DNA from: a virus | Lineage: Duplodnaviria > Heunggongvirae > Uroviricota > Caudoviricetes | IMG/VR virus record: IMGVR_UViG_2778261068_000004 | Direction: 5' to 3' (one strand) | Length of the DNA: 14,861 bases | The notes under the pieces: model-generated | Databases searched by the model: none | What the model saw: the letters and a program-made list of their open reading frames with translations, nothing else | What the model was told of the DNA's origin: nothing | Part shown: positions 14,088 to 14,861 of the stretch, one piece after another | Position numbering within the stretch: position 1 is the stretch's first letter | Layout: every line of letters begins with the position of its first letter | Translations under genes and position numbers: made by a program

Positions 14088-14861
14088 TCAAAAATTAGGT
14101 GAGTAACGGACCGGGGACATAGCTCCTTTTTTTCTTAATTCATCTGGTATTTTTTTTCCAAGATAAAGATTTGCTATTTCAGGTGGGGCTTCTCGACCTT
14201 CAAAACCATAGCGAGAACTTTGTGTTGCCTCAAAGTCAGGATCTTCGTCCCAGTATTTCATCGTAGGGAAATTTTCACGTGTTGATTTGAGCCATTTATC
14301 AGCAATGAAAACCCCTCGAACGATTCCCCTTACAGTAGCAAGAATGACTTCTGCTTGGCTGGCGCGAGAGACATTAATGCGCCAGCTAAATCGAACCGCA
14401 TCATAAAGCTCTGAATCCTTTGCACTTCTGTTAACGGAAATCATTAATGCTTTATGATGAAATGTTATGGTTTCGGGTTGATATGTTGCTATCAACTCTT
14501 TGACATGCGCGGCGCCGAATTCATTGCTGCCAGCACCATTAATGATATTCGTTAACCCAGGGTAGGCATCAATAAGTGCTGCTTCAACTTCGTACGCCGT
14601 CTTTTCATCAGTCATTCCGTGTCGATGGATGACGTGGATAACTTCAAGTCCTGCTAACCTTATTTCTCTAATTTGCTTTAGCTTGTTGCTCAGTAACTCG
14701 TCATCGTCAGCTGCTGCCACTTCACCGCGCATATGGGCAAATACGCGGTTACCTTTGCCTTTCCCTACATAGAAGGTGCTTCCGTCCCTCGGATCAATCA
14801 ATCGGTAAACATACCAGCCAAGATGCTCAATTACTCCAGAGGGAAACTCAGTAATATCCAT
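14088..14861 (-). CDS. GIY-YIG nuclease-domain protein of unknown function (257 aa); candidate defence / exclusion nuclease or free-standing homing endonuclease
   Basis: N-terminal 100 aa carries the full GIY-YIG catalytic set in canonical order and spacing: WYVY, FYVGKG, NR, FAH, YEVEAAL, NIINGAG (compared with I-TevI Y, Y, R, H, E, N). The C-terminal 160 aa has no motif I recognise. The gene is AT-rich relative to the tail module and convergent with pin. Its start codon is the last 3 nt of the window, so the 5' end and ribosome-binding site are unverified. Confidence 0.6.

Follow-up and report, generated by a model that had tools for sequence, protein, structure and literature searches.

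The window, by which we mean the whole 14,861-nucleotide stretch of DNA analysed here, ends in a minus-strand open reading frame (ORF) at positions 14088–14861. This ORF encodes 257 amino acids from ATG to TGA, at the place and with the translation given in the first-pass annotation, which had been made from the letters alone, and its start codon forms the last three bases of the window. We consider the ORF complete because RefSeq, the PDB constructs and the ECOR68 clone of Vassallo et al. all use the same 774-bp coding sequence; the RefSeq entries span hundreds of E. coli genomes, and the crystallised constructs share their first methionine with the window ORF. No noteworthy competing ORF overlaps 14088–14861. 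Nor does an RNA gene, as an Rfam scan of the whole window returned no match at gathering thresholds. In RefSeq, the protein is labelled 'LEM-3-like GIY-YIG domain-containing protein'.

Next to this gene lies pin, which encodes a pinE-type serine invertase (13476–14030, plus strand; ATG and TGA checked) and is treated here as context only, as the conserved anchor on the near side of a cargo slot. It is annotated as pinE by RefSeq in a prophage of E. coli L725 that is 97% identical to the window, and in that prophage the span corresponding to the window consists of head–tail connector, tail, baseplate, tail-fibre and pinE genes, together with two small 'hypothetical' ORFs within the head–tail joining block. 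This annotation supports the earlier view that the minus-strand gene is the only one in the window with no link to virion structure or to the fibre switch, with the reservation that the two small head–tail ORFs are annotated only as 'hypothetical'. The gene also differs in composition, having 43.5% G+C (35.7% at third codon positions, GC3) compared with 57–59% in the baseplate genes (GC3 of 61.8% for the J-like gene). An initial estimate of roughly 40% against 60% was thus correct in direction and a little too large in size. The low G+C content starts at about position 11800, with 44–52% in the fibre switch and 49% in pin.

Two inverted hix/gix-like sites were found at 11571–11598 (CTCTCGAAAACCTTGGTTTAGGAGAAG) and 13395–13422 (TTCTCCCAAACCAACGTTTATGAAAAT), inside the tail-fibre gene and inside an oppositely oriented gp53-like ORF, by scoring against a hix-like 26-mer; a simple inverted-repeat search missed them. 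They are likely to be the Pin crossover sites, enclosing about 1.8 kb of invertible DNA, and the segment between them occurs in both orientations among relatives (compare L016 and L019). Elsewhere in the tail module, L725, the closest relative with a complete genome, has an extra minus-strand gene for an 'OB-fold protein' (L001 4338–4784), flanked by the tape-measure and DNA-circularization genes. At the same place, the window has a gap of just 18 bp (6233–6252) and no OB-fold gene. The gap between the tape-measure and DNA-circularization genes may be a second small cargo site.

The GIY-YIG nuclease domain proposed in the first-pass annotation was recovered by profile search. The Pfam subfamily model PF22945 (LEM-3_GIY-YIG) matched residues 28–110 above its gathering score (E = 3.3e-14, 53.6 bits against a cut-off of 27), and the general GIY-YIG model PF01541 scored 13.7 bits, below its threshold of 22.6 bits. 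Membership in the GIY-YIG superfamily therefore rests on the subfamily model and on the crystal structure. No NCBIfam model matched the 257-residue protein, and the C-terminal part had no match in Pfam or NCBIfam profile searches. All of the motif residues listed at the outset are present in the GIY-YIG part of the window copy (14526–14861, minus strand), namely Y17, Y19, Y31, R39, H43, E93 and N105, as are V92 and L96 of the dimer interface. A residue check found a three-tyrosine GIYxY-YIG motif, which reads G15-W16-Y17-V18-Y19 and F30-Y31-V32-G33. The motif had been described as canonical in order and spacing; the order stands, but the spacing is not fully canonical, there being a 15-residue acidic insertion relative to UvrC. 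The structural equivalent of the GIY tyrosine is Y19 and not Y17, according to the crystal-structure paper (PMC12923530). We infer that R39 and E93 are the catalytic arginine and glutamate, which the text of that paper does not number.

Within the GIY-YIG part, positions 14697–14708 (minus strand) encode the acidic run D52-D53-D54-E55. This run belongs to the autoinhibitory loop over the active site, and its function has been assigned through a 4A mutant (PMC12923530). The C-terminal modification-sensing domain occupies 14091–14504 (minus strand), or approximately residues 120–257, the boundary being approximate. It was delimited by full-length alignment to the crystallised proteins 9U75 and 9U7U. 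Residues 113–257 aligned without gaps to both of these proteins, and Y127 is present.

The gene at 14088–14861 corresponds over its whole length to a known anti-phage gene. The PADLOC model for PD-T4-3, PDLC04031, matched residues 1–256 on model positions 1–255 of 256 (E = 9.6e-140), and PHROG 5356 matched with an E value of 8e-143. PD-T4-3 was discovered by Vassallo et al. in 2022 through functional selection against T4, in a clone from ECOR68 (PMC9519451), and was renamed 'CMoRE' by Liu et al. (Nat Commun 2026; PMC12923530), whose work is also the source of the structures 9U75/9U8D and 9U7U/9U7Z. The window protein is identical to the CMoRE of E. coli O157:H7 (PDB 9U75/9U8D) at 253 of 257 residues (98.4%; E = 3.9e-172, full length) and also matched that of APEC O1 (PDB 9U7U/9U7Z; E = 4e-150). 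Its four substitutions relative to the O157:H7 protein (9U75) are D55E, M107I, K169Q and H197N. E55 and N197 are shared with the active APEC O1 orthologue, and M107I and K169Q are seen in neither crystallised orthologue. At residues 52–55, O157:H7 CMoRE reads DDDD and APEC O1 CMoRE reads DDDE, the latter being the version in the window. Every residue named in the published papers is kept in the window copy: Y17, Y19, Y31, the DDDE loop, R80, V92, L96 and Y127.

The index of a public assembly collection lists the exact protein sequence in 702 blocks, and eight loci that encode it are 94–98% identical to the window in DNA. More broadly, 838 of the 5426 complete E. coli genomes (~15%) carry the gene with at least 95% identity. 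Because the named residues are kept, E55 and N197 are as in the active APEC O1 protein, the exact protein recurs and the gene is widely carried, we assign the window gene, on the strength of these comparisons, as a full-length member of the PD-T4-3/CMoRE family. The gene is thus not new; it had already been named, characterised mechanistically and crystallised.

To the right of pin, CMoRE stands where other prophages carry other genes. The order in the K-12 prophage e14 is pinE, mcrA and icdC (an icd remnant), which confirms the layout given in the first-pass annotation, with mcrA following pin. K-12 DNA was 98.3% identical to the window over a 637-bp alignment covering pinE, and the homology between e14 and the window ended at position 14031, one base past the pin stop codon. 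Across the E. coli loci that we sampled, the post-pin position was occupied by CMoRE (L725 and O157:H7 among others), by mcrA (as in K-12 e14), by a gene for an AAA ATPase with a 94-residue ORF (L001 13934–15960), by a Septu-type PtuA/PtuB pair with an FRG-domain protein (PADLOC candidate PDC-S15; L009 4586–8219), by IS1 with a hypothetical gene, or by one to three hypothetical genes (L011 4882–5979, L012 5028–6752 and L013 4911–5558), or else nothing preceded the host junction. All of the cargo genes measured were AT-rich, with 30–44% G+C. A query spanning pin and CMoRE matched 2992 genomes, and in at least 565 of them the two genes are adjacent.

The presence of a different nuclease from that of e14 had been read earlier as a swap at a hotspot. 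The comparison of loci supports this reading, since the post-pin cargo varies among genomes and the e14 homology stops at the pin stop codon. We conclude that the post-pin position in e14/SfV-like prophages is a variable slot for AT-rich cargo, much of it defence genes. Several AT-rich hypothetical genes in this slot had no PADLOC match, and these could be candidate defence genes. The exchange with mcrA was recorded most directly in E. coli STEC388 (L002 6001–7925), in which a frameshifted CMoRE, 99.5% identical in DNA to the window gene, lies at the e14/icd attachment site. After it come the final 143 bp of mcrA and the icd remnant; the pin side of this locus has been removed by IS26. This arrangement is direct evidence of a replacement, in which a segment with CMoRE took the place of most of mcrA in an element of the e14 type.

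Between pin and CMoRE, the stop codons of which face each other, lies a 38-bp palindrome at 14030–14067, to which no strand is assigned and which has the structure AAACCGTAGCACGTC-GTATGCAAGA-TCGTGCTGCGGTT. It forms the left end of a CMoRE cassette. It is marked out by its predicted RNA fold (−23.6 kcal/mol, z = −4.5), by the break in homology and by a second copy in relatives. A consensus scan found no canonical terminator or T-run between pin and CMoRE, and the palindrome is possibly a non-canonical bidirectional terminator. Short-query BLAST across loci located a second copy, a direct repeat of the first at a distance of 1025 bp and about 190 bp upstream of the CMoRE start codon, both in L725 (L001 13664–13693) and in most of the genomes that encode the exact protein. 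Many other genomes were 'empty', in that pin was followed by one palindrome and then by the sequence found after the second copy in occupied loci; examples with a single palindrome directly after pin are L008 4251–4282 and L009 4251–4281. Copy 1 matches the empty-site sequence in its left half and copy 2 does so in its right half, and the remaining halves are specific to the cassette. From this half-by-half match of both copies to the empty site, the exchange point maps in or next to the 10-nt loop GTATGCAAGA.

The distribution of the palindrome extends well beyond these loci. The pin-side copy was the only one in loci of the O157:H7 type and in the icd-site locus, and short-query BLAST detected no copy in K-12 e14. 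Of 5426 E. coli genomes, 4755 contained related palindromes (median, two copies), and these also lie close to the right ends of the prophages Rac and Qin and of a remnant at the bio site. At one position of the stem, T·G, C-G and T-A variants occurred. The fragment cloned by Vassallo et al., with 189 bp upstream and 33 bp downstream of the gene, almost exactly matches the palindrome-bracketed cassette. One reading of these observations, which we consider unlikely, is that a CMoRE cassette of about 1.0 kb, comprising the 3′ tail, the coding sequence and a promoter region of about 190 bp, moves as a self-contained unit between its two flanking palindromes, and that the palindrome is a dedicated recombination site for exchanging defence cargo at prophage ends, whether site-specific or hairpin-mediated. 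A plainer alternative is that the palindrome is a shared terminator-like sequence and that ordinary homologous recombination happened once.

What CMoRE does has been established by published experiments on its close relatives. Expressed from its native promoter, O157:H7 CMoRE reduced the plating of T2, T4 and T6 by about 10^5-fold, and cells that carried it survived a high multiplicity of infection (PMC12923530). CMoRE degraded T-even DNA and PCR products containing 5-hydroxymethylcytosine (5hmC) or glucosyl-5hmC (5ghmC). DNA containing C or 5mC was neither bound nor cut, and T4(C) escaped (PMC12923530). Cleavage followed the geometry CN11/N9G, left 2-nt 3′ overhangs and required two modified cytosines (PMC12923530). 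These properties bear on the window copy through sequence identities of 98% and about 87% to the experimentally studied proteins.

The same study explains much of this behaviour structurally. The N-terminal GIY-YIG domain is nearest in structure to UvrC and has an extra tyrosine (GIYxY-YIG), and a 15-residue acidic loop lies over the active site; when this loop was neutralised, the enzyme cut ordinary DNA and was toxic (PMC12923530). The tetramer is needed for function, mutants of the active site and of the interfaces lost function, and mutagenesis assigned roles to Y17, Y19, Y31, V92 and L96 (PMC12923530). The C-terminal domain binds 5hm-dCTP near Y127, the main-chain oxygen of which bonds the 5-hydroxyl of 5hmC; the structure of the 5hmC complex holds a nucleotide, not DNA, and the route by which the acidic loop is displaced is left open (PMC12923530). 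The C-terminal sensor was described as a novel fold, with no sequence or structural homologues reported (PMC12923530). In an independent study, deletion of PD-T4-3 in its native host, NILS69, led to sensitivity to Tevenvirinae. A Capnocytophaga homologue that is 48% identical has shown modification-dependent nuclease activity both in vitro and in vivo; it also acts on the DNA of Mu, which contains modified adenine.

Taken together, the best explanation, and in our judgement a very probable one, is that the window copy is a single-protein CMoRE defence against T4-like phages that depends on hmC or ghmC, its mechanism being carried over from the 98%- and ~87%-identical orthologues. The published experiments on these two proteins also support the reading favoured at the outset, which was of a single-protein anti-phage nuclease, possibly modification dependent, in a cargo slot. 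According to this explanation, the protein would tetramerise as a dimer of dimers, and its C-terminal domain would bind 5-hydroxymethylcytosine or the glucosylated form. One dimer would read two modified cytosines about 21 bp apart (CN11/N9G), and the N-terminal GIY-YIG domains would cut between the two, leaving 2-nt 3′ overhangs. The acidic loop over the active site would spare unmodified host and prophage DNA. T-even DNA would be degraded within minutes of entry and the cell would survive, so that CMoRE would act by direct defence, not abortive infection, as the survival of cells at high multiplicity of infection indicates. The modification is absent from self DNA, so CMoRE should need no methylase, immunity gene or partner. 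The lysogen, and hence the prophage, would be protected from T4-like phages, and CMoRE would fill the niche of McrA at the position that McrA holds in K-12 e14.

We considered several other explanations for the gene. A free-standing GIY-YIG homing endonuclease of the Seg or I-TevI type, which had been proposed in the first-pass annotation as an alternative, would spread by cutting prophage alleles without its gene. The GIY-YIG domain itself, a weak partial match to PHROG 314 'homing endonuclease' (E = 0.0014), jumbo-phage homologues annotated as 'putative homing nuclease' and the presence/absence polymorphism with clean 'empty' sites, at which GGCTGGTGAAC follows pin and the palindrome, could all be read in this way. 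However, Pfam found no NUMOD, zinc-finger or helix-turn-helix module of the kind by which I-TevI-type enzymes bind DNA, the C-terminal domain is instead a 5hmC sensor, and the names given to the jumbo-phage proteins are automatic labels based on the domain. Moreover, DNA that is unmodified or carries 5mC is neither bound nor cut by near-identical proteins. The prophage DNA of E. coli lacks hydroxymethylation, so the empty allele is not a substrate. We regard homing as extremely improbable. It is also conceivable, if very unlikely, that the window carries a decayed or re-specialised allele that no longer restricts hmC phages or has shifted its modification preference. Its four substitutions relative to the O157:H7 enzyme include two, M107I and K169Q, that neither crystallised orthologue has, a frameshifted copy exists in STEC388, and the action of the distant homologue on the modified adenine of Mu implies that specificity in the family is plastic. 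Against this, the reading frame is intact, all of the residues named in the published papers are kept, the substitutions are conservative, with two of them matching the active APEC O1 protein, and the exact protein recurs in 702 blocks of the collection, which is consistent with selection for function.

The window stops at the CMoRE start codon, and this raises the question of whether the gene is one part of a multi-gene system with an immunity, modification or sensor gene past base 14861, a concern that had been voiced earlier. What lies beyond that base, including the promoter region of the gene, falls outside the window and was inferred from relatives. In L725, the next genes encode a 94-residue hypothetical protein and a 564-residue AAA ATPase with OLD/AriA/GajA-like PADLOC matches (L001 13934–15960), which would speak for a partner. 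However, the neighbours differ among genomes: O157:H7 has an AraC-family regulator and integrase remnants beyond the gene, most genomes with the exact protein have divergent genes for hypothetical proteins of 167 and 305 residues, and STEC388 has the mcrA remnant and icdC, such that no neighbour past the start codon was conserved among the relatives examined (L725, O157:H7, the exact-protein genomes and STEC388). Furthermore, the ECOR68 clone, which holds a single 774-bp gene flanked by 189 bp on its upstream side and 33 bp on its downstream side (996 bp in total), suffices for defence (PMC9519451), and a DefenseFinder survey found 274 of 274 CMoRE systems to be single-component (PMC12923530). 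A required partner is therefore highly unlikely, and CMoRE is a single-component system without a conserved partner, in agreement with the published sufficiency of the single gene. A consensus scan of the homologous upstream region in L001 gave no promoter match on the strand of the gene at the threshold of the tool.

As a single-protein defence, CMoRE can be compared with other modification-dependent nucleases. The window protein has the same 257-residue length, GIYxY-YIG motif, acidic loop, interface residues and Y127 as the CMoRE/PD-T4-3 proteins of O157:H7, APEC O1 and ECOR68. In O157:H7 prophages, CMoRE lies next to pin, as in the window, but the loci differ in prophage backbone and in what lies to the right of the cassette. 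McrA (EcoKMcrA) of K-12 e14 occupies the same slot, immediately after pinE at the right end of the prophage, and belongs to the same class of single-protein, type IV modification-dependent restriction; it too is AT-rich cargo, with 38.4% G+C. McrA is an HNH nuclease that binds 5mC/5hmC through its N-terminal domain and by published accounts acts on 5mC and 5hmC DNA. By contrast, CMoRE ignores 5mC and accepts glucosylated hmC. The two proteins are unrelated, and mcrA is codirectional with pin in e14, whereas the CMoRE gene is convergent with it. A McrA-type HNH enzyme was rejected as an identity for the window gene: Pfam gave no HNH match, and the homology to K-12 DNA ends at the pin stop codon.

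The PvuRts1I/AbaSI family consists of type IV enzymes with specificity for 5hmC and 5ghmC. Their cut is made between two modified cytosines, at a fixed distance, and leaves 2-nt 3′ overhangs, and they combine a PD-(D/E)XK-type nuclease with an SRA-like sensor. CMoRE resembles them in its 5hmC/5ghmC specificity, its two-cytosine cut and its 2-nt 3′ overhangs, but achieves this with a GIY-YIG nuclease and a sensor that has no detectable homologues; this family is also the one with which CMoRE was compared in PMC12923530. The N-terminal domain of UvrC and I-TevI have the same catalytic fold, UvrC being the closest structural match, with the catalytic arginine and glutamate conserved. Relative to these proteins, CMoRE adds a tyrosine (GIYxY) and the 15-residue acidic lid, and it lacks the DNA-binding modules of the I-TevI type.

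Homologues of CMoRE are also found in phage genomes. A megablast of the gene against GenBank phage records returned no match, and distant phage homologues were detected by protein-level search only. Lytic jumbo phages encode full-length homologues with 38–45% identity over 97–99% of the protein, for example Serratia phage Moabite (6406–7161), Pseudomonas phage OBP (158703–159449) and Klebsiella phage N1M2 (129135–129860), and these bear the labels 'homing nuclease' or 'endonuclease'. Such homologues may help their phages to compete with others whose DNA is hydroxymethylated.

The main gain from this analysis is one of annotation: a window that could be taken for tail genes plus an odd nuclease actually carries a defence gene against T-even phages, a function that is hidden by the RefSeq label of the protein. 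For strains with this prophage, the gene matters when phages are chosen for therapy, and about 15% of complete E. coli genomes carry it. A more modest, contextual point is that the post-pin position in e14/SfV-like prophages is a defence cargo slot that holds McrA, CMoRE, Septu and other AT-rich genes. The mcrA remnant beside CMoRE in STEC388 documents the replacement, in this slot, of one modification-dependent nuclease by an unrelated one.
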